Positions 4,630 through 47,628 of a stretch of DNA of 47,628 bases are shown here, in pieces; positions within the stretch are counted from its first letter, which is position 1, and the number at the start of each line of letters is the position of its first letter. Below the pieces are notes generated by a model that was not told the origin of the DNA, did not search any database, and worked only from the letters and a program-made list of their open reading frames with translations. Both the position numbers and the translations under genes were made by a program. Source of the DNA: a virus; the IMG/VR virus record IMGVR_UViG_3300029258_001468, one strand, 5' to 3'.

Positions 4630-4637
4630 GCCACGAC

Positions 4638-4742
4638 GAGGTATCTTCCGTCCGTCCGGGGAGGGGGGAGGGCCTAAGGGCTTACTCTCGGCCTCAGAGT
4701 GGACGGACGATACCTCCCCGGCGCTTCCTAAGCGCTTAAATT
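4638..4742 (+). repeat. GC-rich structured repeat, copy A (long hairpin plus TAAGCGCTTAAA box); probable terminator after the tube gene
   Basis: Arms GAGGTATCTTCCGTCCGTCC (4638-4657) and GGACGGACGATACCTC (4701-4716). The 3' part GATACCTC...GCGCTTCCTAAGCGCTTAAATT is shared with 31487-31520. Confidence 0.7.
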
Positions 4743-4762
4743 AACCACAGCAGGAGGAGAAC

Positions 4763-10129: not shown

Positions 10130-11646
10130 CTTTCGGATTGACAAACGACGGTTTCACGTTAAAGCGACTGGCCGACATTCGCACCGAGATAGAGGACGCT
10201 TTCAAATCTCAGTGGGGAGAGGTCAACGTCGGAGCGGACTCGGTAAACGGTCAGCTCATCGGTGTTTTCTCGAAGCCACTGGCCGACGTGTGGGAACAGC
10301 TGGAAAAGGTGTATCTGAGTCAAAAGCCCTCCGCGTCGGAGGGGGTTTCCCTTGACGACATCGTGCAATACCTCGGCATTCTCCGCACCGCTGCTACCAA
10401 CGCAATCGCGACGGTCGCGTGCGAAGGAAACCACGGGGTTGTCATCCCGGCTGGCAACAGGGTTCGGGCGTCGGAAACACTGGAGGAGTGGGAAGCTGCT
10501 TCGGCTATCACCATCAGCCGACTTAACATGCTCCGCTCCACGTTCGAAATCGTGACGGCGAACGACAGCACGTCCTACTCGGTGACGATAAACTACCCGG
10601 TAGGAGGAGCGCCGGTCGTCAGCAACTACACGTCCGGAGTGGGACAGACCAAAGAGGCGATTGCCACGGCTCTCGCTGCCGTCGTTGCGTCGGACCACAC
10701 CGGCGATTTGACGGTGGTTGACAACTTAGACGGAACCTTCACGGTCACAGCTACTGACTTGACAACCGAATGGGCCGGGTCGATTTCCGGCGCAGACACT
10801 GACCAACCGGCAATATGGACGCCGGGTTCTTTCCTGTCAATCAACACTGGAGCCATCACCGCTCCGGCTGGAGCCATCGACACGATAGTCAACGCGGTGT
10901 CGAACTGGCGCGACGTAGAGAACCTCATCGCTGCGACACCGGGGACGGCAACCGAGACAGATACAGCTTTACGGGCAAGAAGAGAGGAGTTCATTTCGTC
11001 GGTCGGCGCTGCTACCGTCCCGAAGATAGAGTCGCGCATCCTGCAGGAAGTTGACGACGTGTCAAGCGTCTTTGTAGTCGAGAACAGGAGCAGCGTCACT
11101 GACGGTGCCGGTCGTCCTCCGCACTCGTTCGAAACCGTGGTGCAGGGAGGTCTAGACCAAGACGTCGCCGACAAGATTTGGGAGGTGAAGCCAGCCGGTA
11201 TCGCCACCTTTGGAAACGTGAACGGAGGGTCCGGTGTTGCGGTCATCGACTCGCAGGGCAACCAACAGTTCATGAAGTTCTCCCGACCGATACCGCTGTA
11301 CATCTGGTGCTACGTGGAGTTTGTCAAGTACGACGAAGAGGTCTTCCCGGCTGACGGCGTCAACCTCATAAAGGAAGCGATACGCGATTGGGGCAACGCT
11401 CTTGGCATCGGGGTCGATGTCATCCGTCAACGAATAGCGATACCGATTTACACGATACCGGGAGTCGGGACCATCGACGTGTGGCTTTACAGCAACACTG
11501 TGTCGACGTCAACTCCGGTGAGGCCCGTGCCTCCGACCGGGAACGACTACGACCAGCTGGACCACGAGGTTGCAGCGAACGAAATCTCGACGTGGACGAA
11601 CGTCGACGACGTCAACAACATCGAGGTCGTGGATATCACACCATGA
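10126..11646 (+). CDS. Baseplate J-like wedge protein
   Basis: 506 aa, with an N-terminus typical of gpJ/gp47 family proteins (GFT.KRLADIR.EIE..F...G). ATGA coupling on both sides. Confidence 0.75.
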   Translation: MTFGLTNDGFTLKRLADIRTEIEDAFKSQWGEVNVGADSVNGQLIGVFSKPLADVWEQLEKVYLSQKPSASEGVSLDDIVQYLGILRTAATNAIATVACEGNHGVVIPAGNRVRASETLEEWEAASAITISRLNMLRSTFEIVTANDSTSYSVTINYPVGGAPVVSNYTSGVGQTKEAIATALAAVVASDHTGDLTVVDNLDGTFTVTATDLTTEWAGSISGADTDQPAIWTPGSFLSINTGAITAPAGAIDTIVNAVSNWRDVENLIAATPGTATETDTALRARREEFISSVGAATVPKIESRILQEVDDVSSVFVVENRSSVTDGAGRPPHSFETVVQGGLDQDVADKIWEVKPAGIATFGNVNGGSGVAVIDSQGNQQFMKFSRPIPLYIWCYVEFVKYDEEVFPADGVNLIKEAIRDWGNALGIGVDVIRQRIAIPIYTIPGVGTIDVWLYSNTVSTSTPVRPVPPTGNDYDQLDHEVAANEISTWTNVDDVNNIEVVDITP

Positions 11647-12153: not shown

Positions 12154-14358
12154 ATGGCCTCATATACAGTAGCACAAGCTGGCGATTGGGACGACACGAA
12201 CACGTGGAACGAGTCCGGTACGCCGGGTTCGGGCGACGACGTCACAATTGACAACTACAAAGTAACGATGACACAGGCGGAGACGGCTGGTTCAGTCGTC
12301 ATTGACGGAGGAGAACTTGACCAAGACGGGTACAAGTTGACACTCGACAACGACGTAGCAGACGCTGACCTGTTCATCATCGCAAACGTGCAGGACATCT
12401 ACACACCGAACGGTGGCGAAGTCGAGCTTACCGGTTCCGGTAACGTGGAAAATCCGCACTGGTCCAACGACATCGACAAACTGACGATGGCTGCGAACGG
12501 AAAAACGAACGACGTGACAGGTGACTGCCGGGTGAGCGTCCTCGTCGTCGGCACCGGGACGGTTGACATCCACAGTGGTGTGTCGTTGCAGCCGGGGCAG
12601 GGAGCTTCCGGTGGAACGCAAATCTACTACGACTCCGGGTGCACGTACACCGGTTGGGGGGAGATATTCTTCTACACGCAGAGCACCGGGACGCAGACCG
12701 TCGCCGGTTTTGACGCTGGTGGCATCGGTATCAGCTGGTTCGGCTCAGGCTCCGGCAGCTTTCAGATACTAGGCAACTTCGAGACTACAGGCGGATGCTG
12801 GATGTGGCACTACGGGGATTTCGACACCAACGGATACAACACGGAATCGGACGGACTCTACCTCAACGACTGCACGTTCCGGTGCCGAACCGGGACGCAC
12901 GACCACGGCTCCGTCACAACGTTCTCGGCTGGTGTCGATTTCGAACTTGACAGCTGCACTTTCAAGTGTGCAGGTACCTTTGACCTCGGCTCCGGCTCGA
13001 ACATCGACAACACCAAGGAAACCGGCTCGTGGTCGACTCTCATCTTTGACGGCTCCGGCGCTCAGTCGTTCGACCCACACGGCGACGACATCGGCCACAT
13101 CGAGATTGACAAGAGCGGAGGCACGTTGACGATGCAGGACCAGCTCGGCTGCGTCGACTTTACAAACACAGCTGGAACGTTCGACTCCGGCTCTAACTAC
13201 GCAATAGACATCGACGGCGACTTCTCACTTGACGGCGGTACTGTCGATTTTAACACTTCTACTCTGACAATAGCAGGTGGATACGACCGGGCGAGCGGAA
13301 CGACGTTGACGGCAGACGGCTCGCTCACTTTTGACGGCACCTCCGGCACGCACACCATCAACTCCGGCACCGGTCTTTTCCCGAACTTCACGGTCAACGG
13401 CACCGGTGGAACGTGGGAGTGGTCCGGGACAGGAGGCTTCGACGAAGTGACGGTGACGAATGGGACTCTCGACCTCGTTGGTTCGAGCAGCACTTCGTGG
13501 ACCTCCCTAACCGTCAACGCAAACGGCATCTTCCGAGGAGGCTCCGCTACACTGGAGGTCTACGGCAGTGTCGTCATCAACTCGTCTTCAAACACAGACT
13601 TCGAGACCAGCACCGTCTTGATGGCTGGTTCTTCGACGTCAATCACGAACACCGCGTCCGGGAACGCGTTTTACAACCTCGAAATCAACTCCAGTGGAAC
13701 ACCGAGCACGACCGGCGCGTTCTACGTAGACAACGAGTTCTTAATCACAGCAGGTACGTTCGACCTGAACGGCCACAACATGACGACCCACGACTTCACG
13801 CTCGACGGAGGGACGTTTGACGCTTCTGATGGAACACCGAGTATCAACATATCCGGGGACGTAGACGTCGCCGGTGCAGCGACCATCAACGAAGGCTCTT
13901 CGAAGTTCGTTCTTGACGGGGACACTGCGCAGTCTATCGATTGGGGCGACGAGGACATAAACGACCTCGACGTGACCAACGTTGTCGGAACCGTGAGCTT
14001 CACATCCCGGCTCGACGTGAAGGGAACGTTCGCTCCCGGAAACGGCGCTGCTACAGTCCGCTGCGAATTCGCAACATCCGGTTCGCACTACTGGAACGCG
14101 ATTGACACCTCCGGCGCTAGCGGAACTGGAAGCGTTGAGATTGACAGCATAGGAGGCGTCAGCCAGTTCGCGCTCACGATAGGAAGCAATCAAACCGTCA
14201 CATCGGTTGACGTTTCACAAAGTAACTTGACAGGGTTCACAATCGACGCTACCGACCCGACGAATATCGACAGCGGTAGCAACTCGTCGAATTGGCTCTT
14301 TAGCGGTGGAGACAGTGTTCCTCAGAAAATCTATAACTACAGAAGGAGACGTGTATGA
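12154..14358 (+). CDS. Tail fibre/spike protein with beta-helix-like degenerate G/T/D-rich repeats
   Basis: 734 aa. Recurrent ...GGT.D..G....TL.G... segments. Sits in the tail-fibre block. Confidence 0.65.
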   Translation: MASYTVAQAGDWDDTNTWNESGTPGSGDDVTIDNYKVTMTQAETAGSVVIDGGELDQDGYKLTLDNDVADADLFIIANVQDIYTPNGGEVELTGSGNVENPHWSNDIDKLTMAANGKTNDVTGDCRVSVLVVGTGTVDIHSGVSLQPGQGASGGTQIYYDSGCTYTGWGEIFFYTQSTGTQTVAGFDAGGIGISWFGSGSGSFQILGNFETTGGCWMWHYGDFDTNGYNTESDGLYLNDCTFRCRTGTHDHGSVTTFSAGVDFELDSCTFKCAGTFDLGSGSNIDNTKETGSWSTLIFDGSGAQSFDPHGDDIGHIEIDKSGGTLTMQDQLGCVDFTNTAGTFDSGSNYAIDIDGDFSLDGGTVDFNTSTLTIAGGYDRASGTTLTADGSLTFDGTSGTHTINSGTGLFPNFTVNGTGGTWEWSGTGGFDEVTVTNGTLDLVGSSSTSWTSLTVNANGIFRGGSATLEVYGSVVINSSSNTDFETSTVLMAGSSTSITNTASGNAFYNLEINSSGTPSTTGAFYVDNEFLITAGTFDLNGHNMTTHDFTLDGGTFDASDGTPSINISGDVDVAGAATINEGSSKFVLDGDTAQSIDWGDEDINDLDVTNVVGTVSFTSRLDVKGTFAPGNGAATVRCEFATSGSHYWNAIDTSGASGTGSVEIDSIGGVSQFALTIGSNQTVTSVDVSQSNLTGFTIDATDPTNIDSGSNSSNWLFSGGDSVPQKIYNYRRRRV

Positions 14359-16418
14359 CATTCCTCAAAGCAAACACCTCAGCGGTGCTGCAGATGGGGC
14401 CTTTCCTCGACGAGGACGACGGGAAAACCCCGGAGACGACGTTGACTATCAATACGTCCGACGTTCGTCTCAGTAAAGGCGGAAACGACTTCGCAGCCAA
14501 GACCAGCGCTACGGCGACGACTCATGACGAAAACGGGTGGTACAAGGTTACGCTAAGCGCGTCGGACCTCAACTTTGCCAACGGTAGACTCATCGTGTCA
14601 ATCGACGTAGCCGGTGCTCTCCCAGTATGGCGCGAGTTTCAGGTAGTCGACGCTCAGGCGTACGACTCGCTGTACGCGAATCAGGGCGACAAGCTGGAAG
14701 TCGACCTCGTCAAGATTGACGGGCAAGACACCGATGGCAACAACGCGACGTTGAACCTCAAGCAGCTTAACTGTCAGAACGCAGACGGCGACGCAATCGT
14801 AGCGTTCAGCACTGACGTCGGCTCTCACGGTTTACACACGAGAGGTGGACAGAACGGAGCAGGGCAGTACAACGAAGGAAACGCCTCCGGTGGAAAGGGC
14901 ATGCACAACCAAGGACGTATCAGCCAGCCCGGTATGCAGAACAACGGAGTCAACTCCCACGGTATGTACAACCAAGGAAACGGTTCCGGCCACGGACAGT
15001 ACAACTACGGTGGTGCTGGTGGCGACGGGCAGAACAACCTCGGTGGCGCCACCTCCGGGAATGGCGCGACCTTTCAGAAGGGTGCCGGTGGTTCATACGA
15101 CATTGACGCCGACGAACTCCAAAACATCCCGTCCGCAGCCGACAACGCGGATGCCGTTTGGGACGAGCCGATCGCCGGTCACACTACCGGGACCACATTT
15201 GGTGGCAAGAATCAGAAGGTCGTTCCTTCCGAGACCATCAACGACTACAAGGCCGACGTTTCCGGCCTGTCAACTTTTGACCATACGACGGACGAAGTCG
15301 ATATCGGTGCCGTCAAAGGCGCTGGTGTCACTGGCGTTAACGACTTCAAAGCCGACGTATCCGGTCTTTCGACGTTTGACCACACGACGGACGAGGTCGA
15401 CATCGGCGCTGTGAAGGGCGCTGGAGTGACAGGTGTCAATGATTTCAAAGCGGATGTTTCCGGTCTGTCAACTTTCGACCATACAACCGACGAAGTAGAC
15501 ATCGGCGCTGTGAAGGGCACCGGCGTGACAGACGTCGACGATTTCAAGGCGGACGTGTCCGGCCTGTCGACATTCGACCCGTCGACCGATGAGGTTGACA
15601 TCGGTAAAGTGAAGGGCGCGGGCGTCACCGGGGTCAACGACTTCAAGGCCAATGTGTCCGGTCTTTCCACCTTTGACCCGGCCACAGACGAAGTTGACGT
15701 CGGTAAAGTGAACGGTGCTACCGTCACCGGTGTGAACGACTTCAAGGCTGACGTGTCGGGCCTCTCCACCTTCGACCACACCACCGACGAGGTGGATATC
15801 GGAGCAGTGAAGGGAGCAGGTGTGACAGGCGTCAATGACTTCAAGGCAGACGTTTCAGGACTCTCGACCTTTGACCCGTCCACGGACGAAGTAGACGTCG
15901 GAGCTGTTAGCGGAACACCGGTTTCTTCGGTTAACGACTTCAAGGCGGATGTCTCAGGTCTTGGAACGTTGGCAGGTCAGGCCACCATTAACAACAACGT
16001 CCTAGCAAACAACGTCGATATCGGCGTCGTAGACGGCAAGGTTGACACTCTGCAAACCGACATTGACGACATCCAGCTCTCGCTCGTCACCATCACTAAT
16101 GACATTGACCAGATATTGGTCGACACGACATCGCTGACTGCTGGTGTGCAGCTGTCAACTCAGGGTAAGGCCGACGTGAAAGATCAGGTCGACACCGCAT
16201 TGACAAGCGACACTGTGGCGCAGAATCCTCCGGGAGCACCGGCAGCGACACCGACCGTTCACGGTCTACTGTCGTTCCTCTACGCTGGCCGGGCCTTCGA
16301 GGTAGAGCAGACACAGACGAAAACGACAATGAAGAACAGCTCAGGAACCCCAATACACGAAGCCGACTTCTTCGAGGACGACACCGTCACGAGAAGCGGT
16401 AAGTTTGGAGCACCTTAA
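14355..16418 (+). CDS. Tail fibre protein with Gly-rich segment and 33-aa tandem repeats
   Basis: ATGA coupling, 687 aa. Contains a (G/N/Q)-rich stretch followed by 7.4 copies of NDFKADVSGLSTFDHTTDEVDIGAVKGAGVTGV. Confidence 0.7.
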   Translation: MTFLKANTSAVLQMGPFLDEDDGKTPETTLTINTSDVRLSKGGNDFAAKTSATATTHDENGWYKVTLSASDLNFANGRLIVSIDVAGALPVWREFQVVDAQAYDSLYANQGDKLEVDLVKIDGQDTDGNNATLNLKQLNCQNADGDAIVAFSTDVGSHGLHTRGGQNGAGQYNEGNASGGKGMHNQGRISQPGMQNNGVNSHGMYNQGNGSGHGQYNYGGAGGDGQNNLGGATSGNGATFQKGAGGSYDIDADELQNIPSAADNADAVWDEPIAGHTTGTTFGGKNQKVVPSETINDYKADVSGLSTFDHTTDEVDIGAVKGAGVTGVNDFKADVSGLSTFDHTTDEVDIGAVKGAGVTGVNDFKADVSGLSTFDHTTDEVDIGAVKGTGVTDVDDFKADVSGLSTFDPSTDEVDIGKVKGAGVTGVNDFKANVSGLSTFDPATDEVDVGKVNGATVTGVNDFKADVSGLSTFDHTTDEVDIGAVKGAGVTGVNDFKADVSGLSTFDPSTDEVDVGAVSGTPVSSVNDFKADVSGLGTLAGQATINNNVLANNVDIGVVDGKVDTLQTDIDDIQLSLVTITNDIDQILVDTTSLTAGVQLSTQGKADVKDQVDTALTSDTVAQNPPGAPAATPTVHGLLSFLYAGRAFEVEQTQTKTTMKNSSGTPIHEADFFEDDTVTRSGKFGAP
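15240..15968 (+). repeat. 99-bp in-frame tandem repeat, about 7.4 copies, inside the tail fibre gene
   Basis: Exact 99-nt periodicity (units start at 15240, 15339 and so on to 15933). Peptide units are nearly identical; the DNA units differ mainly at third codon positions. Confidence 0.95.
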
Positions 16419-19692: not shown

Positions 19693-19892
19693 CCTCCCTT
19701 TCTCTTCCTTCTCCTGCGGAAAGGGAACCGGGGCGATGCTGGCTGAGGTCGGTGTCGCCCTACCTATATCCGGGGTCGGGAAGCCTAATGGCTTCGGAAA
19801 AAGTAACGACTCCCACCAACACTCAGTTTCACACCTCGGCATGAAACCCGGCTTTTTGCTAACTCGTTATAGTTAGTAAGGAGGGTACTACC

Positions 19893-22653: not shown

Positions 22654-23179
22654 CGACCTGTATCGGTACGTCCGGGAGCACCTGCGCTCCGTTCCTCCGG
22701 TTTTCTACGACCGGGTGCGGACAGCGCTCCTGCTCAAAGGTGTCGACCTATTAGGGGAGGACCAAGACCTCATGTTCGTCGCCCTACGAAACAAGAAGAT
22801 CGACACGTTGCGCTCCTGCAAGCGCGACCGGGTGACAATGAACTCTGTCAAGACGTCGGACGTTACCGAAAGTGAGCTGCTCCCTACCAACGGGAAGACT
22901 GACATGCGTTCGTTCCTTGAGATTCTGTACATCACGTTCTTGCGTGTCAATCCACCACACCAGCGCTACCTCTCGCTCTACATTCGAGCGGTGGCGAACG
23001 GGAAGCAGCCGACGAATGAACACATCAGCTTCCTCGCCGGGTTTAACGGGAAACGAGGCTCGGTCATATGGAAGAAAATCAAGGAAACCGCTTTACAGGT
23101 GCAAAAAGAAGGAAGGGCCTATGAGCTGTACAGAGTGCGAGACCTATCAGACCTGCTGCGACGCGTACGCCTCCAGTAA
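22637..23179 (+). CDS. Hypothetical protein
   Basis: 180-aa ORF. Its 3' end overlaps the polymerase start by 59 nt. Confidence 0.55.
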   Translation: MTASTSDLYRYVREHLRSVPPVFYDRVRTALLLKGVDLLGEDQDLMFVALRNKKIDTLRSCKRDRVTMNSVKTSDVTESELLPTNGKTDMRSFLEILYITFLRVNPPHQRYLSLYIRAVANGKQPTNEHISFLAGFNGKRGSVIWKKIKETALQVQKEGRAYELYRVRDLSDLLRRVRLQ

Positions 23180-25535
23180 GCCTGTAGACGTCCTGTTCGT
23201 GCAGGACATCGTGAAGACGTACAACGGAGTCCGAGGCTACAAGACGGAGACGATGACCAAGCTGCGTCACTCGCTCCGGACGGTCTACAACTCCGGAATG
23301 AGCGTCGAGTATGTGAACCTTGTCAACTACATGCTGCCGGAGGGCAAAAAGCCGGTGAAAAAGGACATCACCGCGTGCGCCGGGTTCACTAAGCGGATGA
23401 TTGACAAGTGCAAACCACAGTATATCGTCGCTCTCGGTGCTGCCGTGTTCACCGCATTGACAGGCAAGAGTCAGTTCAAGAAGTGGGTCGGTCGGACCGT
23501 CGAGCACGAGGGGTACACGGTCATCCCGATGTTTCACCCGGATTACGCCACCAAGAATAAGGCACGGGAGCGAGAGTACGACGCGCAGTTGAAGAACATC
23601 ACGAACCAGCTGCTCGGTAAACACTCCGTCCTCGACGACAGCCGATACGAGCTTATCACCGAGGAGAAGGACATCTACAACAGGCTGCACGACCTGCGGA
23701 CGAGGGAGTGCGACACGATTCAAGCATTCGACTACGAAACGACCGGCCTCATCCCCGGAGAAGGACTGCCAGTGTGCCTGTCAATCTCGTTCGAGCACGG
23801 GCAAGCGTACTGCTTCTACTTCTTCGACCGGGACGAATACGAAGACACCGGTACGAACTCCGGATTGACAAAGACAATAAAGGAAGCGGTACGGGCGTGG
23901 ATGGAGTCGGACGTCCCGAAGGTCGCGCAGAATGCCAAGTTCGAAATCAAGTGGACGATGCGTCACTTCGGCTGCGAACCGAACAACATCGTCGGCGACA
24001 CGAAGCAGATACACCACCTCCTCCATGAGGCGAGCGATTCTTCCCTGTCAAACTTGGCCTACCAGTACACCGATATGGGAGGGTACGACACGCCGATGGT
24101 CGAGTTCCTCGCTGAAAACGGCGAAGGCTCTCACTGGAAGGCCGACCCGGAGACGATGCGTATTTACAGCTGCGGAGATTCCGACTGTACCCGGCGTATC
24201 TACGTCGAGCAGATAGAAACGCTCTTCAAGGACGCTGGCCTCAAGTGGCTGTACCGGAACGTAGTGCACCCGTCAATCTACACGCTGGCCCGTATCGAGG
24301 AACGCGGTATGCAAATCGACGTCAACCGCCTCTACGAGGTGCAGCAGGAATTGACAAAGAAGATAGCCGACACCAAGGCAGAGCTGGACGACATGCCGGA
24401 GGTGCGGAGGACGCTAGCCCGGTTCAAGAAGACGAACAAGAAGTTGACGGAGGTCAACTACGGCTCTTCTTCTCAGATGCAGCACCTCCTCTACCACGAG
24501 TGCAAGCTCCCGGTGCTCAAGACCAGCAAGAAGTCGAAGAAACCGTCGACCGGGGCGAAGGTCCTTGACAAGCTCAAATCGAAGCACCGCGTCGTGCAGC
24601 TCATCTGCAACATTCGTAGCTACACGTACCAACTCGGCGACATCGAGCAGATAGGCGACCGGTTGTCCGAAGAGGAAACCGTCTTTTCAGACTTGGTGCA
24701 GGACTACGTGGTGACCGGTCGTCTTTCCTCCCGGTCCCCGAACCTGCAGAACATCAAGGGAGGAACGGACGAAGAGCCGTCGCTCGTCAAGGAGTGTTTC
24801 GTGTCCCGGTTTGACAAAGGAGAACTCCTGCAGGTCGACTTCTCTCAGCTGGAGCTTAGGCTGGTCGGCAGCGAAGCCAACGAGCCGAAGTTCATCCGGG
24901 CCTTCAAGGACGGTACCGACATGCACACGTTGACCGCCAGCGAAATCAACAAGGTACCGCTTGACAAGGTAGAAAAGAAGCAAAGGACGTACGCGAAGCG
25001 CGTCAACTTCGGCTCCGTCTACGGCATCACCGAACACGGGCTGGCCGAGCAGCTCGATTGCAGCGAGAAGGAAGCGAAGAAGCAGCTCGACGCCTATTGG
25101 GAGTCATACACCGCTATCCGGGCGTGGACGAAACGGAACATCCGCGAAGCGCTGGAAACTTTACAGGTGAGAAACCGGCTCGGTCGCATACGGCATCTGC
25201 CGGACATCACCTCGAACCAGTGGTGGAAGCGCGAATCGGCAGAGCGCCAGTCCTCGAACTTCAAGATTCAGAGCCTCGGTGCGGACATCAACATGTGGAG
25301 CATGGCGAACATTGACCGGTACTTGACAAGGAAGAACTACGACAGCATCGTCATCGGACAGATTCACGACTCGGTACTGATAGACTGCCACCCGGACGAG
25401 AAGGACGAGGTCATTGCGCTTGTCAAGTGGGTCATGACCGAAAAGGCGATGGACCTGTTCACCTTCCTACGCATACCGCTCAAGGTGGACGTCGAAACCG
25501 GACCCCGGTGGTCCGAAATGAGGAACGTAGCGTGA
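23121..25535 (+). CDS. Family A DNA polymerase with 3'-5' exonuclease and N-terminal UDG-like (family-4-like, degenerate) domain
   Basis: Exo I FDYETTG, Exo III YSCGD. Pol motif A DFSQLELR, motif B RTYAKRVNFGSVYG, motif C QIHDS. The N-terminal Cys cluster and FHPDY resemble family-4 UDG. ATG 23121 follows GAAGGAAGGG. Confidence 0.9.
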   Translation: MSCTECETYQTCCDAYASSKPVDVLFVQDIVKTYNGVRGYKTETMTKLRHSLRTVYNSGMSVEYVNLVNYMLPEGKKPVKKDITACAGFTKRMIDKCKPQYIVALGAAVFTALTGKSQFKKWVGRTVEHEGYTVIPMFHPDYATKNKAREREYDAQLKNITNQLLGKHSVLDDSRYELITEEKDIYNRLHDLRTRECDTIQAFDYETTGLIPGEGLPVCLSISFEHGQAYCFYFFDRDEYEDTGTNSGLTKTIKEAVRAWMESDVPKVAQNAKFEIKWTMRHFGCEPNNIVGDTKQIHHLLHEASDSSLSNLAYQYTDMGGYDTPMVEFLAENGEGSHWKADPETMRIYSCGDSDCTRRIYVEQIETLFKDAGLKWLYRNVVHPSIYTLARIEERGMQIDVNRLYEVQQELTKKIADTKAELDDMPEVRRTLARFKKTNKKLTEVNYGSSSQMQHLLYHECKLPVLKTSKKSKKPSTGAKVLDKLKSKHRVVQLICNIRSYTYQLGDIEQIGDRLSEEETVFSDLVQDYVVTGRLSSRSPNLQNIKGGTDEEPSLVKECFVSRFDKGELLQVDFSQLELRLVGSEANEPKFIRAFKDGTDMHTLTASEINKVPLDKVEKKQRTYAKRVNFGSVYGITEHGLAEQLDCSEKEAKKQLDAYWESYTAIRAWTKRNIREALETLQVRNRLGRIRHLPDITSNQWWKRESAERQSSNFKIQSLGADINMWSMANIDRYLTRKNYDSIVIGQIHDSVLIDCHPDEKDEVIALVKWVMTEKAMDLFTFLRIPLKVDVETGPRWSEMRNVA

Positions 25536-27011: not shown

Positions 27012-28103
27012 ATGATAAAAGGAAAAGCGAACATCGTCCTTGACGGTCAGTGGGGTTCGACCGGGAAAGGTAAGCTCATCGGGTACTTAGCGCTAGCACA
27101 CGACGTGTCGCTGGCGACGTGCGACTTCATGAGCAACGCCGGACACACCTTCGTCGACGACGATGGAAAGAAGTATGTCAGCTGTCAAGTGCCTACCTCG
27201 TTCGTGAACACGGACTGCGAGCTGGCAATCAACGCCGGTGGAGCGGTCACGATAGATAGACTCCTCAAAGAGATAGAGGAGTTCGACGTCGCCGACCGCC
27301 TCACGATTCATCCGCACTGCGCCGTCATCACAGAGGAAGACCGGGACCACGAAGCGAAGGTGCTCGCCCGGATAAGCAGCACGTTGAAAGGCTGCGGAGG
27401 TTCTCTCTCCCGTAAAGTGATGCGAGTCGCAAAACTGGCGAAGGACGAGCCGAAGCTTAAACAGTGGATAGGCGACACCACCGCGTTGACTCAGAAGCAC
27501 CTGTCAATCGGTGGAACCGTGCTGGTCGAGGGAGCGCAGGGATTCGACCTCTCATTGAACCACGGGCACGAGTACCCGTTCGTCACGAGCAGGGATGTCA
27601 CGACGATGTCGATACTGAACAACGCGTGTATTCCTCCGCTGTGGCTCGGCGACGTGTACGGCTGTCTTCGCACGTACCCGATTCGAGTCGGGAACATGTT
27701 CGACGGAGAGGGCAACCAAATCGGCCATTCCGGTCCGTGGTACGACGACCACGAAGAGATCGATTGGGACAAGCTCAAGGCAACGTCCGGTTCCGACATC
27801 GACTTGACAGAGAGGACAACGGTCACGAACAAGGTCCGACGCCTCTTCACGTTCAGCCACTACCAAGTCCGCAAGTTCATAAGGGCCTGTGCACCGACCA
27901 AGCTGTTTGTGAACTTTGTCAATCACCTCTGCGCTGCCGACGTCGGAAAGACCGAGTTGGACGACCTGTCGGTGGAAACACGTATCTGGCTCAACGAGCT
28001 ACAGGAAACAGTCGGTGACGAGTGGATATCCGACGTCAAGTACAAACCCGAAATCAGCCACCTCGGAACCGGAGCGAAAAACGGCGACATGGTGGTGCTA
28101 TAA
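27012..28103 (+). CDS. purZ: PurZ-like adenylosuccinate-synthetase homologue (candidate N6-succino-2-amino-2'-deoxyadenylate synthase)
   Basis: PurA core motifs are present (GQWGSTGKGK, NAGHT, EGAQG, YPFVTS). It has only 363 aa, Ser-Thr replaces the PurA Asp-Glu pair, and the substrate loops are divergent. Phage context. Confidence 0.7.
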   Translation: MIKGKANIVLDGQWGSTGKGKLIGYLALAHDVSLATCDFMSNAGHTFVDDDGKKYVSCQVPTSFVNTDCELAINAGGAVTIDRLLKEIEEFDVADRLTIHPHCAVITEEDRDHEAKVLARISSTLKGCGGSLSRKVMRVAKLAKDEPKLKQWIGDTTALTQKHLSIGGTVLVEGAQGFDLSLNHGHEYPFVTSRDVTTMSILNNACIPPLWLGDVYGCLRTYPIRVGNMFDGEGNQIGHSGPWYDDHEEIDWDKLKATSGSDIDLTERTTVTNKVRRLFTFSHYQVRKFIRACAPTKLFVNFVNHLCAADVGKTELDDLSVETRIWLNELQETVGDEWISDVKYKPEISHLGTGAKNGDMVVL

Positions 28104-28112
28104 GGAGGCACC

Positions 28113-29255
28113 ATGCTTTACGGAGACAAAAAGAACGTGGTGTGGGTCATCGGTCGCCTTGCTGCCGGGAAAACGTCGCATATCCGTGGCATCATCGAAA
28201 CGGACCCGGACAAGCTCATGGCCGTTTTCCCCGGTCAAGCGTGCCGGGAGCACTTCGGTGCGCAGACCATGGCCGAATGTGAGAACCCGACCGCGCCCGA
28301 AATGACGGAGTCGTTCGTACGAAACCTCATCTGTGATGCAGTTGACAGGATAGAACCGGGCATGACGCTCTTCGTCGACGGTTTCCCTCGCACGCCGAAT
28401 CAGGTAGAGTGGCTGTACGACCAGTTCGTTCGGAACTCCGGGTTGGCGTGTATGTTCCTCGTTTACACCTGCGATGACGTAGTCCGCAAGGCGCGAGCGT
28501 TGAAGCGCGACGAGGGAACGAAGAACGAGTCGCTCATGAACGCTCGGCTCATCACCGACGACCGGAACCAGCTGCGCGTCCTCGAAGAGATTCTGATGCG
28601 GAACGCGTACGCAGTTGCCAACAAACGGCGGTCCGTACCGCTCACGCTCATTGACAACACCAAAGACATACCGCACATCGCCGGGATGCCTCCCTTCGTT
28701 CCTACTCAGTACGTGCCAATTGACGGGCGCATTGAACGAGCGATGGAGGACCTACGCGATGCGCCGGAGGTCGCCGGTATCTCGTTCGACGACCGGAACC
28801 TCGCGACGATGATGGCGTGCAACGCTACGCTGTCGGACCAAACGCTCGCTCCGCTGAACTTGACAATGGAGAAGCTGCGGTCCGAAGCGGTGCAGCACAA
28901 CGAAATGCCGTTGATGGCGACCCCGGTCGACTGGACCCGGCGCTTCGTGTCGCGTGCAATCGAGGAGCTGAACGAGCTACTGGAGCAGCTGCCGGAAACG
29001 TGGTGGTCGAAGGAGCTGGCCGACATCAGAAAGGCGCGTGTCGAGTTGATAGACGCGTGGCACTTCATGATGTCCGCGTCGCAGTCGCTCGGCATGGACG
29101 CGACGTTCTTCGCCCGGACGTACTACGCGAAGCTCAAGGTCAATCTCAAGCGTCAAGCGAACGGGTACGACAAACGTGTAAAGAAGAAAGGCGACGACAA
29201 CCACGTCGGCGTGGCTACTCGTCCCGGTAACGGGGAGGAGTCGACCGGCGAATGA
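28113..29255 (+). CDS. Fusion protein: adenylate-kinase-like NMP kinase (N-terminal) + all-alpha NTP pyrophosphohydrolase (MazG / dimeric-dUTPase / DUF550-like, C-terminal)
   Basis: P-loop GRLAAGKT and DGFPRT (adenylate kinase signature) within aa 1-185. AIEELNELLEQLPETWWSK ... VELIDAWHF (ExxE...ExxD metal motifs) within aa 270-320. Confidence 0.65.
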   Translation: MLYGDKKNVVWVIGRLAAGKTSHIRGIIETDPDKLMAVFPGQACREHFGAQTMAECENPTAPEMTESFVRNLICDAVDRIEPGMTLFVDGFPRTPNQVEWLYDQFVRNSGLACMFLVYTCDDVVRKARALKRDEGTKNESLMNARLITDDRNQLRVLEEILMRNAYAVANKRRSVPLTLIDNTKDIPHIAGMPPFVPTQYVPIDGRIERAMEDLRDAPEVAGISFDDRNLATMMACNATLSDQTLAPLNLTMEKLRSEAVQHNEMPLMATPVDWTRRFVSRAIEELNELLEQLPETWWSKELADIRKARVELIDAWHFMMSASQSLGMDATFFARTYYAKLKVNLKRQANGYDKRVKKKGDDNHVGVATRPGNGEESTGE

Positions 29256-30511
29256 GTGTCCTGTCCCCGGAGTTTCAGACGAACTTGACAAAGGCGATAC
29301 TGCAGGACCCGTCTTTTCTGTCAAGGTACCGGACCTACCTAGAACGCGGTATGTTCAAGGACGAAACCGAGTCCGACGTCGTGCGTCACGCATTGGAGTT
29401 CTACGACCAGTACAGTGCCACTCCGTCGCGTGACTCGTTCACGCTCTACTTGGAGAGGCAGAACTACTTGACAGAGGACATAGAGGAGTTGGTGCATCCG
29501 CTCTACGACGAGCCGGTGCTGAACATCGACTTCCTCGAAGACTCGTTGAAGGACTTCGTCAAGAAGACGCGAATCAAGGACGTGCTGTTGGAGAGTACGG
29601 TGTTGCTTGACAAGGGAGAATACGACCGCATATACGACCGCATCAAGAACACGGTGCTCTCCTTCGTGGACGGGGACGTCGGCGACCTGTTTTGGAAGGA
29701 CAAAAAGAAGGTGCTGCAGGAGCTTGACGCCGGAGAACAGTTCATTCCTACCGGCATCACCTCGCTCGACGAGAAGCTCGGTGGTGGTGCCGTGCGGAAG
29801 ACGTTGAACGTCATCGTCACTCCGCCTAACAAAGGAAAAAGCACGTCGCTGGTTAACGTCGGGAAGTACGCAGCGCTCGCCGGGTTCAACGTCGCGCACT
29901 ACACGTTCGAGCTTTCGGCGAACGTCATCAAGCGCCGGTACTTCATGGCGATGACCCGGATGAGCAAGAAGGAGCTAAAAAGGAAGAAGGCTACCGCGTA
30001 TGACAAGATACTCGACCTCGCCGACGGAATAGCGGAAGAGTCCATCATCGTCAAGCGGTACCCGGCGTACAGCTGCACGGTGCCGATGGTCCGGGAACAC
30101 ATCAACCTCGTGCGGAACAAGTACGGGTTCTTCCCGGACGTCCTCATCTTCGACTACGCGGACCTCATGCGCTCCACCAAGAGCTACGACCAGCGAAGAC
30201 ACGAGCTGTCCGAGGTCTACTACACGATGAGGGAGCTGGCCGACGAGTTCAACGCAGCAGCGTGGACCGCGTCGCAAACGAACCGGAGCGGAGCAAGCGA
30301 GGAGCTGGTCACGATGGAGGACCTCGCCGAGTGCTACGAAAAAGCAGCCTGTGCAGACGTTATGGTGTCTGTCAATCAAACTTTAGACGAAAAACGGTCT
30401 CGGCCACAGACGGCCCGGCTGTTCCTCGCTAAGAACCGGGACGACGTGTCCGAGGTGACGGTAGAGGTCGAGACCGATTGGGAGAGGGCATGGATAGGAA
30501 ACTTACTTTAG
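29252..30511 (+). CDS. DnaB-like replicative helicase (RecA-fold)
   Basis: GITSLDEKLGGG, Walker A PPNKGKST, Walker B LIFDYADL, and SQTNR. Confidence 0.8.
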   Translation: MSVLSPEFQTNLTKAILQDPSFLSRYRTYLERGMFKDETESDVVRHALEFYDQYSATPSRDSFTLYLERQNYLTEDIEELVHPLYDEPVLNIDFLEDSLKDFVKKTRIKDVLLESTVLLDKGEYDRIYDRIKNTVLSFVDGDVGDLFWKDKKKVLQELDAGEQFIPTGITSLDEKLGGGAVRKTLNVIVTPPNKGKSTSLVNVGKYAALAGFNVAHYTFELSANVIKRRYFMAMTRMSKKELKRKKATAYDKILDLADGIAEESIIVKRYPAYSCTVPMVREHINLVRNKYGFFPDVLIFDYADLMRSTKSYDQRRHELSEVYYTMRELADEFNAAAWTASQTNRSGASEELVTMEDLAECYEKAACADVMVSVNQTLDEKRSRPQTARLFLAKNRDDVSEVTVEVETDWERAWIGNLL

Positions 30512-30981: not shown

Positions 30982-31223
30982 CGGTTGTCAAGCAATACAA
31001 CCCGGTATGTTACCGGAGGGCTAGACGTGTTCCAGTTGTATCCGTCACTCAACGCCGACCAGCAGCAGCTCCCGGTAAACGACCGGCGCTAGTTGCAGCT
31101 GTAAAGCGAGTGCTGGAGAAGCTGGAACGCATCGAGCCTTTCTCCGTGCAGTGGGGTATGCTGTGCGGTATGGGGTTCGCAAGCGAACAACGACTACAGG
31201 AGTTCCTCGCATGCCACGAGTAG
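30978..31223 (+). CDS. Hypothetical small protein (TTG start)
   Basis: TTG overlaps the upstream TGA and follows GAAGAAGGA. The longer ORF from 30897 was rejected. Confidence 0.4.
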   Translation: MTVVKQYNPVCYRRARRVPVVSVTQRRPAAAPGKRPALVAAVKRVLEKLERIEPFSVQWGMLCGMGFASEQRLQEFLACHE

Positions 31224-32215
31224 ACCGTGACTACGTGTTCGAGCAGCTAGGCGATTTCCACCGTCGCAAGGAGTGGTACAACTTCCGGTGTCCGTATCAC
31301 CGAGGCGAGTCACTCAACTTCGGGGTGTCCTTCCGGGCTGGCCGGTTCCACTGCTTCTCATGTGGTGCTGCCGGTCCGCTGCCGGTCCTCCTATATGACC
31401 TGAGGGAAGGCACGGCGACGGGCTTCGGAGGCGGTCGTGGCCTCCTAGGGCCTAAGGCCCGACCCCGGCCCGGCGAGGCCAAGGAAGATACCTCGTCTGC
31501 GCTTTCTAAGCGCTTAAATTCGGGTCGGTCCGACCCCGGCCCGGAGGTGGACACCGACAGGTGGTTCCGGGACCGCTTCGAGGCCCTCCCGGAGGTGGCT
31601 GGCACGGCGCTTGCTGGTAAGATGGCGCTGGAGTACCTGCGCCGACGCGGAATACAGCTCGACCGGCTGGACGTTGGTCTACTTGACGGATACGAAGGTC
31701 GGGTGGTCTTCCCATTCTACGACCGAGGCAAGGTCGTCTTCTTTCAGGGCCGGTCATTCGTGCCGTCGCCGTTGAAGACCATCAACCCCGATGTTGAGGA
31801 CGGCTGGTATCCGAAAACCGACGTGCTCTTCCGACTTGAGTGTCTGAACGGTGGAACGGTCGTATTGACAGAGGGGATATTCGACGCCTTGAAGACGGAA
31901 CAGGCGATTGGAAGGTCACATCGAGCGAGTTGCCTACTTGGAAAGACCATCAGCCAAAGACAGATTCGGCTGCTCCGGTCTGCTGGCGTCGAGTGGATTA
32001 CCGTGTTCTTGGACGGTGACGCCAACAGGGAAGCAGCCGATCTCGCTATCAAGCTTTACAAGCACAAATTCGGCGTGCGCTTAGTCCAGTACCCTAACCA
32101 CATGCACGAAGCGGACCCCGGCTCGCTGGACGCCGGGACGATTCGCTCTCTTCTCCTTTCTGCTCGTCCTGTTGGTCCAACAACAGAGCTTGAGCTTGCT
32201 CTTTTATCCGCCTAA
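31211..32215 (+). CDS. DnaG-like primase (CHC2 zinc finger + TOPRIM) with a low-complexity insert encoded by repeat copy B
   Basis: CPYH...CFSCG zinc finger. TOPRIM motifs VLTEGIFDA and FLDGDANREAA. The linker GFGGGRGLLGPKARPRPGEAKEDTSSALSKRLNSGRSDPGPE is encoded by 31409-31545. Confidence 0.85.
   Translation: MPRVDRDYVFEQLGDFHRRKEWYNFRCPYHRGESLNFGVSFRAGRFHCFSCGAAGPLPVLLYDLREGTATGFGGGRGLLGPKARPRPGEAKEDTSSALSKRLNSGRSDPGPEVDTDRWFRDRFEALPEVAGTALAGKMALEYLRRRGIQLDRLDVGLLDGYEGRVVFPFYDRGKVVFFQGRSFVPSPLKTINPDVEDGWYPKTDVLFRLECLNGGTVVLTEGIFDALKTEQAIGRSHRASCLLGKTISQRQIRLLRSAGVEWITVFLDGDANREAADLAIKLYKHKFGVRLVQYPNHMHEADPGSLDAGTIRSLLLSARPVGPTTELELALLSA
31409..31545 (+). repeat. GC-rich structured repeat, copy B, in frame inside the primase gene
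   Basis: Shares GGGCCTAAGGCC, GGAAGATACCTCGTCTGCGCT and TCTAAGCGCTTAAATT with copies A and C. Internal 14-bp direct repeat CGACCCCGGCCCGG at 31460 and 31531. Confidence 0.7.
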
Positions 32216-32756
32216 TCTCCCTGCTGATAGTCGCTTTGCTGATGTCAAGTGACCGGGCTATCAGACTGTCCGGTATCGAGTCCGGGTTCAGGCTCATGAC
32301 GAGCTTGCCGGAGGCGCGTGCCTCCAGTTTGTGTTGCCGGACCGCCATTGACATCTGTAAAGTCTTATCGCTAGGAGCGAGCTTCTCCCGGAGTACGCGC
32401 TTGCCGAGGGCCGACAGGCGACGCTCCAGTGCTTGGATAAAGACGCGTGCCTCGACCTCGTCTTCGTGGCTGTCAATCGGAGCTTCCACGTTGTCTGAGG
32501 AAGAAGCAAACCGGGCGTGGTACCGCATCGCTTCGCGCTGCGCGTCTACGATTCTGTTGTACGCCGTCCTGCTGATGAGGCGGATGACGTCTTGCGTGCT
32601 CTTGTGTTTGTACCTGTCAATTGCGTGTAGGGCTGCGACGAGTCCTTCCTGCATGAAGTCGTGCGCTTGCAGCTGGTCGACCGCGTGCCGGTAGGCGACG
32701 ATGCGGACGCCGTTGTAAATCTTCCGGATGAACCAGCTCTTGTCAAGCATCTTCAT
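32094..32756 (-). CDS. Sigma-70 family (ECF-like) sigma factor
   Basis: Region 2 DFMQEGLVAALHAIDRY...RTAYNRIVD. Region 4 HTH LIARSLDISKATISREIRRIKEQ. Confidence 0.75.
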   Translation of the reverse strand: MKMLDKSWFIRKIYNGVRIVAYRHAVDQLQAHDFMQEGLVAALHAIDRYKHKSTQDVIRLISRTAYNRIVDAQREAMRYHARFASSSDNVEAPIDSHEDEVEARVFIQALERRLSALGKRVLREKLAPSDKTLQMSMAVRQHKLEARASGKLVMSLNPDSIPDSLIARSLDISKATISREIRRIKEQAQALLLDQQDEQKGEESESSRRPASRGPLRACG

Positions 32757-36067: not shown

Positions 36068-36430
36068 TGTAGCTCCTTTCGTGGTGCCGGGTTCGGCAGC
36101 GCCTCCCGGTCGTTTGTTTGTTGGGTGTCGGGGTTCTCACCCCCATACGTAAAAAAAACACACGCCGGGCCTTCGCGCAACCCCAAGATATAGTGTTTAA
36201 CACGTTAAAGAAATACAACGGGTTGTATAAGAGCAAATAGCGTGCCAAATGAAGCGCTTAAAAAGACTGGCACGGCTCTTGCTGGTCAAACGTATAGAAA
36301 CAGAGCCTTTTTGGACGTTTTCATTTGTAAAGAAACGAATGTCGCCTGTCAAGGCAACGCGGTCGTTCTACTCTGTAAAGAAACGGAGTTTGTGTTCCGG
36401 TCGTTATCGTGGTTGAAGGGAGAGAACGTC
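36068..36430. promoter_or_regulatory. Divergent control region between the leftward and rightward operons
   Basis: Exact 12-mer TGTAAAGAAACG at 36326 and 36374. Hairpin 36229-36280 with AAGCGCTT at its apex. Palindrome GTGTTTAACAC. On the - strand, TTGACA-N17-TACAAA at 36352-36324. Confidence 0.5.
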
Positions 36431-37012: not shown

Positions 37013-37139
37013 AGGGGGCATGAAACTGAGTGTTTGTCTCAGACGTTACTTTTTCTGAAGCCACTCGGCTTCCCAACCCCCGGATAGCTGGACATATCGC
37101 ATAGCAGGAGTCCTTATTCACAACCCAAAAGGAGGAAGT

Positions 37140-37886: not shown

Positions 37887-38288
37887 GTGGAACGAAAGGA
37901 AAGGCACCCGGAAGGCTTCAAGGGCTTGAGAGGGCTTAAGGGGCGACCCGGACCCGGAGAGGGCGACGGAGATACCTCGTCGGCGCTCCCGGAGGCTCCG
38001 AGAAGGCAACCGAACACGGCGCTGCTGCAGGAGCTGCTACGGATGCCGAAGGTGAACCCGAAGCTCATCACGCAGAACGACCGGCGTGCGAGTGTCGGGG
38101 AGGTGTTGGACGCTTTGCTCCCGTCAATCAACCGGGAGTTCACGGCGCTGTTCCGGGAGCACGTGAGGATGCAGCGTCAACAGTGGTTGCTCCGTCTGCA
38201 GGGCGTATACGTCGGTCCTGCAAGACGCGGAAGCAAGACGGTATACACGACGGCGAAGGGAAACCGTAAAAAGAGGAGGAAGACATGA
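37887..38288 (+). CDS. Hypothetical protein (start ambiguous: GTG 37887 or ATG 38043)
   Basis: GTG follows GAAAGGAGGA. If 37887 is used, the N-terminus is encoded by repeat copy C. Confidence 0.45.
   Translation: MERKERHPEGFKGLRGLKGRPGPGEGDGDTSSALPEAPRRQPNTALLQELLRMPKVNPKLITQNDRRASVGEVLDALLPSINREFTALFREHVRMQRQQWLLRLQGVYVGPARRGSKTVYTTAKGNRKKRRKT
37903..37995 (+). repeat. GC-rich structured repeat, copy C
   Basis: About 75% identical by eye to 31409-31505 (GGCAC..GGCTTC..GGGCTTAAGGGGCGACCCGGACCCGG..GGAGATACCTCGTCGGCGCT). Confidence 0.65.
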
Positions 38289-47395: not shown

Positions 47396-47628
47396 GTGAT
47401 TCAGAAAATACAGAGCGTCAACCTCGATGCGAATGAGTCTGTCTTCTTTGCTCGCGAACTTGAACACATCAAGGCTCAGTCCTACGATGTCAAGTACCCG
47501 GAGTACAAGGCCACACGGCTCATCCCCGTCAGCGGTGATGCTGGTCCCGGAGCAAGGACCATCACCTACCGTCAGTTCGACTCTGTCGGTGTTATGAAGA
47601 TCATCGCCGACTACGCGACCGACCTTCC
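47396..47628 (+). CDS. Major capsid protein, 5' portion (continues at base 1 via the terminal overlap)
   Basis: GTG after GAAGGAG. In frame with ORF ..856 when 47485 is mapped to base 1. Confidence 0.85.
   Translation, partial: MIQKIQSVNLDANESVFFARELEHIKAQSYDVKYPEYKATRLIPVSGDAGPGARTITYRQFDSVGVMKIIADYATDL
47485..47628. repeat. Terminal overlap copy (identical to 1-144)
   Basis: Exact 144-nt identity with the window start. Confidence 0.95.

Follow-up and report, generated by a model that had tools for sequence, protein, structure and literature searches.

The 47,628-nt stretch analysed here (IMG/VR virus record IMGVR_UViG_3300029258_001468; hereafter the window) carries a DnaG-like primase gene, and the DNA encoding the linker between the two domains of this primase recurs at two further places of the same genome. 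The copies are called c1, c2 and c3, c2 being the one within the primase gene; their coordinates and those of the other features are listed in Table 1. The first and last 144 nt of the window are identical (1-144 = 47485-47628). Whether this terminal overlap reflects a circular assembly or a direct terminal repeat, the phage genome is complete, at about 47.5 kb. Its structural module follows the E217/phiTE myovirus type, with a sheath-like DUF3383 protein, a PF11681 tube protein and a TAC_15 chaperone. The replication module comprises PolA, a PurZ-like enzyme, a DnaB-like helicase (29252-30511) and the DnaG-like primase. A DNA search of the GenBank phage collection yielded no cultured relatives, and the best protein matches in cultured phages reach 28% identity for the primase and 41% for the tube protein. 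Comparisons were made with uncultured relatives (L001, L083 and others), each read over 6-21 kb; among them L087/L103 is a 7-kb contig of a close relative.

The primase contains a CHC2 zinc ribbon, a catalytic core and a Toprim domain, and its cysteines and its EGIFD and DxD motifs are invariant, as expected of a DnaG-type enzyme. Pfam matches are Zn_ribbon_DnaG PF01807, DNAG_N PF08275 and Toprim_2 PF13155. Besides the start chosen by the gene caller, alternative upstream starts exist at 31151 and 31163. A sequence-only reading of this DNA had described 31409-31545 as a GC-rich repeat that encodes low-complexity peptide and is inserted in frame between the zinc ribbon and the Toprim domain. 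Location and peptide were confirmed (zinc ribbon aa 35-75, Toprim aa 238-317). The insertion was not borne out by alignment of the primases, since an equivalent linker is present in all close homologues. Nine homologues with 36-42% identity, and further clade members retrieved by a hidden Markov model search of 1.84 billion proteins, all have linkers of similar length. Many clade primases share the peptide motif G.GLL...(S/P)E[WY]..DTSPAL[LS][KN]RLN, for example P0150 (SEYEEDTSPALLKRLN); the present-day peptide of c2 is EAKEDTSSALSKRLN. In an AlphaFold2 model (mean predicted local distance difference test score, pLDDT, 84) both domains are confident, and residues 73-105 have a pLDDT below 50; these correspond to nt 31427-31525, which is essentially c2. 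Because the homologues share a linker of similar length and the model is of low confidence over c2, the view that c2 represents the ancestral disordered primase tether of the clade, and no recent insertion, is firmly supported. In more distant DnaG-type primases the linker is about 25-30 residues shorter, and the longer form may have been gained anciently at the base of the clade.

A repeat finder, blastn-short, nhmmer and Smith-Waterman alignment agree on three homologous copies of about 95-120 nt in the window and on no others. The sequence-only reading had listed all three; the homology in c1 and c2 is longer than the bounds it had drawn. The repeat finder reports one family of 57 nt (81% and 68% identity) and another of 74 nt (74%). 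In the Smith-Waterman search the best genome-wide matches of each copy are the other two, with scores of 24-36 as compared to 14.6 +/- 1.3 (maximum 19) for dinucleotide-shuffled queries. All four occurrences of GATACCTC/GAGGTATC in 47.6 kb fall within the copies, AGGGCYTAAGG-N29-GATACCTC has the same spacing in c1, c2 and c3, and the coding copies c2 and c3 are read in one common frame, the two remaining frames being blocked by TAA codons inside the element. A chance likeness of GC-rich, low-complexity DNA had to be considered, as c2 lies in the most GC-rich kilobase of the genome (60%) and encodes low-complexity peptide. The scores lie 7-16 standard deviations above the shuffled controls, the exact blocks are collinear with identical spacing, and there are an orthologous copy in L087 and matches across genomes; chance is ruled out.

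Three short boxes structure the element. Box A is the small hairpin GGGCC-TAA-GGCCC, box B is GAAGATACCTC, and box C is CTAAGCGCTTAA, which includes the 10-bp palindrome TAAGCGCTTA; hairpin and palindrome had been pointed out before and are present as described. Related GGCCTGAG boxes occur in both copies of the element in the relative L085 (see below), 39-40 nt from box B as in the window. Together with 31499-31504, box C forms a small hairpin GCGCTT-TCT-AAGCGC followed by TTAAATT. The direct repeat formerly proposed to flank the 3' half like a duplication does exist and measures 15 nt rather than 14. Its units are 71 nt apart and out of frame with each other, the first lying inside the element, so it is no duplication flank. 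As a target-site duplication it was rejected, because excision of the 71-nt unit breaks the frame and the first repeat falls within the stretch that c3 and the L087 element have in common with c2. The ORF (open reading frame) with c3 at its 5' end (37887-38288) has no homologues that we found besides itself. A second possible start, an ATG with GGAG as Shine-Dalgarno sequence, is located downstream near 38043-38050, and c3 could therefore be a 5' leader rather than translated.

Table 1. Positions of the primase gene, the copies of its linker DNA and associated features in the window
Feature	Position	Strand	Remarks
DnaG-like primase gene	31211..32215	+	Zn ribbon, linker, RNA-polymerase/Toprim core; gene-caller product P0001 starts at 31211
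Copy c1	4631..4745	+	spacer between tail tube gene 4198-4629 and tail assembly chaperone gene 4763-5245
Long imperfect hairpin of c1	4638..4716	+	z = -3.8 to -4.1 in the window; -6.1 in L087
3' box of c1	4717..4742	+	small hairpin GGCGCTT-CCT-AAGCGCT, box C, TTAAATT; ends 20 nt before chaperone start codon
Copy c2	~31405..31523	+	primase inter-domain tether; nhmmer 31407-31525; repeat families D5/D8
Box A	31448..31460	+	small hairpin GGGCC-TAA-GGCCC; from sequence
Box B	31484..31494	+	GAAGATACCTC; sequence pattern matches
Box C	31506..31517	+	CTAAGCGCTTAA with 10-bp palindrome TAAGCGCTTA (31507-31516); from sequence
Direct repeat, copy 1	31459..31473	+	15 nt, CGACCCCGGCCCGG(C); internal to element; homologous positions in c3 and L087 element
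Direct repeat, copy 2	31530..31544	+	15 nt; 71 nt downstream of copy 1, different reading frame
Copy c3	37903..37995	+	5' end of orphan ORF 37887-38288; c2 frame; without box C
Third AAGCGCTTAA of the genome	36252..36261	+	AT-rich divergent early control region; flanks GTGCCA...TGGCAC
Sigma-70-family gene	32094..32756	-	Pfam Sigma70_r2; convergent with primase, overlapping its 3' end; candidate trans-factor only

Copy c1 lies among tail genes with Pfam assignments DUF3383/Phage_TAC_15 and PF11681. In L087, whose tube gene is 84% identical to that of the window at the nucleotide level, an orthologous element, designated L087e, occupies the same tube/chaperone spacer. The corresponding spacers of L104, L105 and L106 (tube proteins 61-68% identical) measure only 25-69 nt and are without the element; in L105 a hairpin and a T-run are found there. 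Compared with the orthologous spacer in these three relatives, c1 therefore represents an insertion. The 5' arm of c1 (4635-4649, GACGAGGTATCTTCC) is the exact reverse complement, 15/15, of the c2 box-B region GGAAGATACCTCGTC, and the long hairpin of c1 thus arose by inverted duplication of the box-B side. Between window and L087 the outer arms of the hairpin are 88-89% identical and the interior 40%, the 3' box is identical at 26/26 nt with flanking genes at 72-84%, and the stem carries a double compensatory change (CGTCC/GGACG to CTGCC/GGCAG). Maintenance of the c1 hairpin under selection is firmly supported by this pattern. RNA folding, suggested for the element as a whole, found c1 significantly structured and c2 (z = -0.1 to -0.5) and c3 (range with c2 -0.1 to -0.7) not.

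c1 and L087e differ by a 1-nt indel and c1 has no usable start codon, which shows that c1 is not translated; it is a young, non-coding copy. Read in the c2 frame, c1 would encode EWTDDTSPALPKRLN and L087e EWQDDTSPALPKRLN, and both peptides are nearer to the clade primase consensus than present-day c2. Thus c1 retains GAGTGGACGGA / EWT..DTSPAL.KRLN, as do L083, L132 and P0150, at a place where c2 is altered; at the nucleotide level it has GAGTGGACGGA in common with the primase linker of L083 and 39/49 nt with that of L132. L087e and c1 match differing sub-segments of c2 (L087e-c2, 80% over 59 nt, E = 2.5e-8). Most simply, c1 can be read as a fossil that preserves an earlier state of the primase linker. 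Translation of c1 through read-through or frameshifting of the tube gene was considered and rejected: the peptide frame continues the tube frame past its TAA in L087 and is shifted by +1 in the window, with the 1-nt indel and no start codon. A -1 frameshift site C_UUA_AAU was likewise rejected, as the string is also kept in non-coding c1 and is absent from L001 and L119.

The relative L085 provides a second, independent case of copying. Its linker DNA (10191-10280) has a 72% identical intergenic copy at 13985-14073, which follows an array of operator-like repeats and precedes a gene of the same strand by about 60 nt. Aligned with the linker, this copy scores 35 against a background of at most 13, with three 1-nt indels. 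The L085 primase is 44% identical when its linker is set aside. In L121, the closest relative of L085 (59% identical), the linker is colinear and of the same length, has no nucleotide similarity, and there is no extra copy; the intergenic copy of L085 is for this reason judged to be young and derived from its own linker. It is firmly supported that the extra copies are secondary ectopic duplicates of linker DNA.

These observations bear on the likeness to Rickettsia palindromic elements (RPEs) proposed in the sequence-only reading. Parts of that likeness hold: the repeat is dispersed over coding and non-coding DNA, the coding copies share a frame, and c1 is palindromic and inserted. The in-frame insertion into this primase does not. 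The equivalent linker, offered there as an observation that would speak against an insertion if it lacked nucleotide similarity to the other copies, is present in the homologues, and several of these linkers do share nucleotide motifs with the copies; for the latter reason the element is of the same age as the clade, not missing from it. The rival explanation would be a selfish palindromic miniature inverted-repeat transposable element (MITE) or RPE that transposed in, its primase copy acquired in the clade ancestor or repeatedly and now decaying, and c1 being fresh and intact. It could account for the strong hairpins of c1 and L087e with arms that are inverted box-B copies, for the absence of c1 from L104, L105 and L106, for a degenerate left arm kept in c2 and c3, for an 18-bp inverted repeat in the L001 linker (z = -3.8) and for the shorter linkers of distant DnaG-type primases; in-frame fusion, moreover, is a hallmark of RPEs (PMC10969869). 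Yet there is no target-site duplication, c2 and c3 have no terminal inverted repeats, and the inverted arms of c1 form its internal hairpin only. Copies number only three, and no transposase was seen among the ORFs scanned, in which nuclease matches were of the PD-(D/E)XK type only. Pattern scans of IMG/VR, of JGI metagenome contigs and of 185,579 species genomes, the metagenome search called for earlier, returned a single true relative, L087/L103, all other matches being due to chance. Further, the linker is colinear and carries a conserved protein motif in all homologues, the copying in L085 went from primase to intergenic DNA, and c1 resembles old primase coding sequence rather than an independent consensus. 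A classical MITE/RPE insertion is least consistent with the data and, being improbable, essentially excluded.

Other origins of the repeat were tried and rejected. A host-derived repetitive extragenic palindromic (REP) sequence or MITE found no backing in the 185,579 species genomes (12 matches, all chance), and a family defined by the c1 arms gave ten IMG/VR matches, unrelated AT-rich chance hits except L087. For a diversity-generating retroelement, no reverse transcriptase was seen and the differences between copies are not adenine-specific. ARAGORN and Rfam were negative (gathering threshold and E <= 1), which disposes of a tRNA, an attP site and a known RNA family.

Part of the linker is conserved in a manner that the peptide does not fully explain. 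The 3' portion forms a bipartite module, AAGATACCTC followed after 12-15 nt by YTAAGCGCTTAA; in the primase gene the segment holding boxes B and C reads GAAGATACC...CTAAGCGCTTAAAT. Matches to GRNGATAYYTY are confined to the element copies of the window, L085 and L087, bar one stray in L120. AAGATACCTC is also found in a control region of L084, and GAAGATACCTC in the primase linker of L132, a genome of 32% GC. The longest exact match between the primase genes of window and L001 is TCTAAGCGCTTAA (13 nt, the next longest being 8 nt), and it falls in the least conserved segment of the protein. In L119, box C reads TCTAAGTGCTTAA, where a radical Arg-to-Cys change is accompanied by intact synonymous positions all around. 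L132 has GAGGAAGATACCTCTCCTGCACTTCTTAAACGCTTAAAT (GAG GAA GAT ACC TCT CCT GCA CTT CTT AAA CGC TTA AAT), and CGCTTAAAT occurs in L132 and in L133 (36% GC), in the latter twice: ...AAC CGC TTA AAT, with a second AAA CGC TTA AAT 63 nt later. Several codons of the module run against the bias of their genomes, namely GAT (11%), AAT (11%), TTA (3.8%) and TCT (8%) in the window and CGC (5.6%) and ACC (13%) in L132. At identical residues, window and L132 use the same codon in 8/13 cases (expected 3.05, p = 0.0025), and window and L001 in 7/8 (expected 2.9, p = 0.0025), the expectation being calculated from each genome's own codon usage. Conservation of part of the linker sequence as nucleic acid, beyond the peptide, is firmly supported in phages of 32-56% GC. 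On the protein side, the L133 primase has the RLN motif twice (LLNRLN and LFKRLN, 21 aa apart; 10307-10318 and 10370-10381), both encoded by CGC TTA AAT; CGC is a rare Arg codon (5.6%) in L132, which is AT-rich like L133.

Were the linear protein motif the only selected property, the copies would be neutral products of template switching or ectopic repair in a GC-rich segment prone to hairpins, and the codon identities would be due to chance or gene conversion. Many clade members do clearly conserve the peptide motif, box C is missing from c3 and the L085 copies, the extra copies are young and lineage-specific, and the inverted duplication that gave the c1 arm is typical of template-switch mutation. 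Against this stand the identity of the non-coding c1 box (26/26) and the compensatory stem changes between window and L087, the rare-codon identities across genomes of 32% to 56% GC, the Arg-to-Cys change of L119 amid unchanged synonymous sites, and the presence of the bipartite module in non-coding control DNA of L084. We consider the absence of any nucleic-acid function unlikely.

The L084 sequence in question lies in the divergent early control region, where AAGATACCTC-N-TAAGCGCTT is found at near-native spacing. The same region contains GATACCTC-N15-AAGCGCTT...TGGCACG, of which the TGGCACG block is homologous to the control region of the window. The GATACCTC...AAGCGCTT match was first dismissed as chance and then reinstated, as it combines a 10-mer and a 9-mer at near-native spacing. 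The pattern GATACY-N14-16-TAARCG is shared by c1 and c2 of the window, L087, L001, L132 and the L084 control region, always on the gene strand; its sites are few, and some are within the primase gene. When 272 kb of sequence from the window and its relatives were scanned with the strictest bipartite pattern, in which box C ends in CGC, the module sites and one looser L084 site were matched, all co-oriented with the local genes. Because of this orientation, the position just upstream of genes or within control regions, the independence from GC content and the low copy number, we infer that the bipartite module serves as a transcription-related signal acting in cis.

Several operator-like sequences were noted in the same kind of region. 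Divergent early control regions hold palindromes TGATACA-N-TGTATCA in L001 (14214-14340) and L121 (10973-11150), ATACAACGGGTTGTAT in the window (36196-36280) and GTCACAAATTGTGAC arrays in L085 (13729-13975). The GATAC half-site of the control-region palindromes resembles box B, a likeness that may or may not be meaningful.

A further possibility is a purely RNA element, such as a nut/put-like antitermination site, an RNase III site or a translational operator shared by several transcripts, the primase copy being one such site within an mRNA. All copies are oriented with transcription, and some occupy leader or spacer positions (c1, perhaps c3, and the L085 copy behind the operator array); the G-U pairs of the c1 hairpin favour the transcribed strand in the window, and a hairpin with a T-run sits in the same spacer of L105. 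On the other hand, c2, c3 and most primase linkers have no significant or shared fold. The L001 linker reaches z = -3.8, as compared to -0.7 to +2.1 for c2, c3 and the linkers of L083, L084 and L085, and sliding-window z-scores of the primase linkers gave no consistent RNA fold. L001 and L119 conserve only the 3' half of the small hairpin, a pattern that fits recognition of a palindrome in duplex DNA better than an RNA stem. Finally, no Rfam match was obtained, and L087e folds equally well on both strands. An exclusively RNA-level element accordingly receives a small probability only. As for the L001 linker (10234-10352), it contains an 18-bp interrupted inverted repeat, ACCCGGCC..GCACGGTCCC paired with GGGACCCGTGC GGCCGGGT, which encloses the box B/C module, and it alone folds significantly among the primase linkers tested.

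Alternatively, the copies could be replication sites, serving as an origin, in initiator or primosome loading, or in pausing. Nucleotide conservation inside a replication gene, in the sole segment that tolerates a sequence constraint, would suit such a role, as would a second copy 26.8 kb away in the late region, a layout like that of SPP1 (PMC6316719), and a palindromic core with hairpin potential. An iteron array is nonetheless missing, the only AT-rich stretch is TTAAATT, and a single box B is present in each copy except c1, which has two in inverted orientation. We recognised no initiator gene, and GC skew gave no origin signal. Every non-coding copy points in the direction of transcription and lies just upstream of a gene, neither of which an origin needs. 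We therefore consider a replication site a doubtful explanation.

The account we prefer is that the ancestral tether DNA carries a putative transcription-related cis signal and has been copied ectopically. The linker DNA would serve two codes, the tether peptide G.GLL...E[WY]..DTSPAL.KRLN and the bipartite nucleotide module, and pieces of it would have been copied to non-coding or 5'-terminal sites, always co-oriented with local transcription. In the lineage of the window, c1 would have arisen in the tube/chaperone spacer and c3 at the start of an orphan ORF; in L085, the linker would have been copied to the early intergenic region, and the 3' module alone is present in the early control region of L084. 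In c1 the box-B side would have been inverted and duplicated into a long hairpin that is kept by compensatory change, with the bipartite module directly after it. The module may be a promoter or a regulator-binding site for a clade-specific factor, for which the sigma-70-like protein encoded beside the primase would be the obvious candidate reader. The transcript is the most likely target of the c1 hairpin, which may be an RNA-level terminator, processing or stabilising element behind the abundantly expressed sheath and tube genes, and the remainder of each copy would be passenger sequence. Taken as a whole, this account is given an even chance.

A number of observations weigh against it. The region of the codon test was picked after inspection, so that its p-values are indicative only, though they agree across independent lineages. 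The protein motif EDTSPALLKRLN is itself conserved and explains part of the nucleotide similarity. Nor is the module universal: box C is degraded in the primase linkers of L083, L084, L085, L120 and L121, and it is missing from c3 and from both L085 copies. Promoter and Rfam scans found nothing at the module and copy sites. An internal promoter in the primase gene would have no obvious product. In the window the G-U pairs give the hairpin a strand asymmetry that is missing in L087, where L087e folds equally on both strands, so that the hairpin may act as RNA or as DNA. Lastly, copy numbers in the relatives refer to the 6-21 kb read of each.

The sigma-like gene permits a more specific proposal. 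A minus-strand gene overlapping the 3' end of the primase gene is found in L001, L083-L085, L119, L121, L132 and L133 as well; its product has a Sigma70_r2 match in L001, L085, L119 and L121 and no family match in L083, L084, L132 and L133. The overlap of the two genes measures about 35-120 nt (window 32094-32215), and the arrangement is absent in L120. Conceivably, the tether carries a site (promoter or operator) that answers to the sigma-like factor of the clade itself and, from within the primase gene, drives or controls antisense transcription into the sigma gene, closing an autoregulatory loop. The linker would then have been copied repeatedly as a regulatory cassette (to a place in front of the tail chaperone genes, to the head of the late operon and to early control regions) and would once have been palindromised to a terminator-like hairpin. 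In this elaborate form the proposal is a long shot.

Further repeats and genes of the window were recorded. A second repeat family of about 65 nt (85% identity, inverted) lies at non-coding module borders, at 19770-19835 (+) and 37020-37085 (-). Each member has a hairpin GAAGCC-NNNN-GGCTTC with differing loop, then AAAAAGTAACG and ACACTCAGTTTCA, and an ATG shortly after; it may be a promoter/leader or terminator cassette. The motif (A)TTGACAAAGGAGA stands directly upstream of start codons at about ten sites (among them 18281, 18571, 21611, 36892, 37502, 38716, 42324 and 43629); it merges a TTGACA-like hexamer with a Shine-Dalgarno sequence and is reminiscent of some start-associated sequences of mycobacteriophages. 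Within the large ORF 14355-16418 there are seven tandem 99-nt (33-aa) repeats of 66-78% identity (15139-16029); they probably form a domain repeated in a tail fibre or decoration protein. The PurZ-like gene (27012-28103) has as its best NCBIfam match the succino-amino-deoxyadenylate synthase PurZ, with 225 bits, below the curated cut-off of 300. It adjoins a kinase/MazG-like (dUTPase_2) gene (28113-29255) and is accompanied by PolA (22872-25535) with an N-terminal UDG-like domain. The PurZ-like, MazG-like and PolA genes are present as a trio in all relatives, and the genomes of the clade may contain 2-aminoadenine (Z) DNA.

Should the preferred account be correct, a disordered linker would be a shared address for a peptide motif and a nucleic-acid signal, the latter surviving a shift from 56% to 32% GC. 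Non-coding phage elements such as the hairpin after the tube gene would be born from copied coding sequence and not from mobile elements, and caution would be needed before in-frame repeats are named "insertions" without comparison of orthologues. The bipartite motif offers a handle on transcription or replication control in an uncultured clade of PurZ-carrying phages. If the autoregulatory promoter were real, coding sequence would have seeded new cis-regulatory elements in phages. In the literature we found no description of primase linker DNA reused as dispersed non-coding elements, nor of a nucleotide-level signal conserved there, and to our knowledge no such case of a phage primase linker is known.

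Related arrangements exist among known systems. RPEs are short repeats, some of which lie in frame within ORFs and add peptide while others are intergenic (PMC10969869). The element described here resembles them in being a repeat of about 100-150 nt, in encoding an in-frame surface or linker peptide in some copies while others are intergenic, and in that one copy is palindromic (PMC10969869). It differs in that there are three copies without terminal inverted repeats or target-site duplication, and in that the primase copy is not inserted with respect to orthologues. Its copying, moreover, appears to have run from gene to non-coding DNA, and its 3' module is conserved across very different genomes, as that of a decaying parasite would not be. 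The origin of phage lambda lies inside the linker of the O gene. In SPP1, oriL is located in gene 38 and oriR among late genes (PMC6316719). With these two origins the element has in common a DNA signal in the flexible part of a replication gene, and a second copy far off among late genes; it differs from them in lacking iterons, an AT-rich unwinding element and a known initiator, and a replication start here is hypothetical.

Phage stem-loops such as intrinsic terminators and T7-type RNase III sites provide a third parallel, as c1 follows the sheath and tube genes and precedes the chaperone and tape-measure genes of low-abundance products. In contrast to them, c1 is built of recycled primase coding sequence and is followed by a conserved box that is not U-rich; a terminator consensus scan did not call it, the tail after the hairpin being UUAAAUU. 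Mycobacteriophage stoperators and start-associated sequences, and the PeSL cassettes of T4-like phages, are intergenic and numerous, and their motifs are reused along the direction of transcription. Reuse and orientation are alike here, whereas one copy is always in the primase linker and copies are very few. The linker element is thus a variant of known themes, namely cis-elements in the linkers of replication genes and in-frame repeats.

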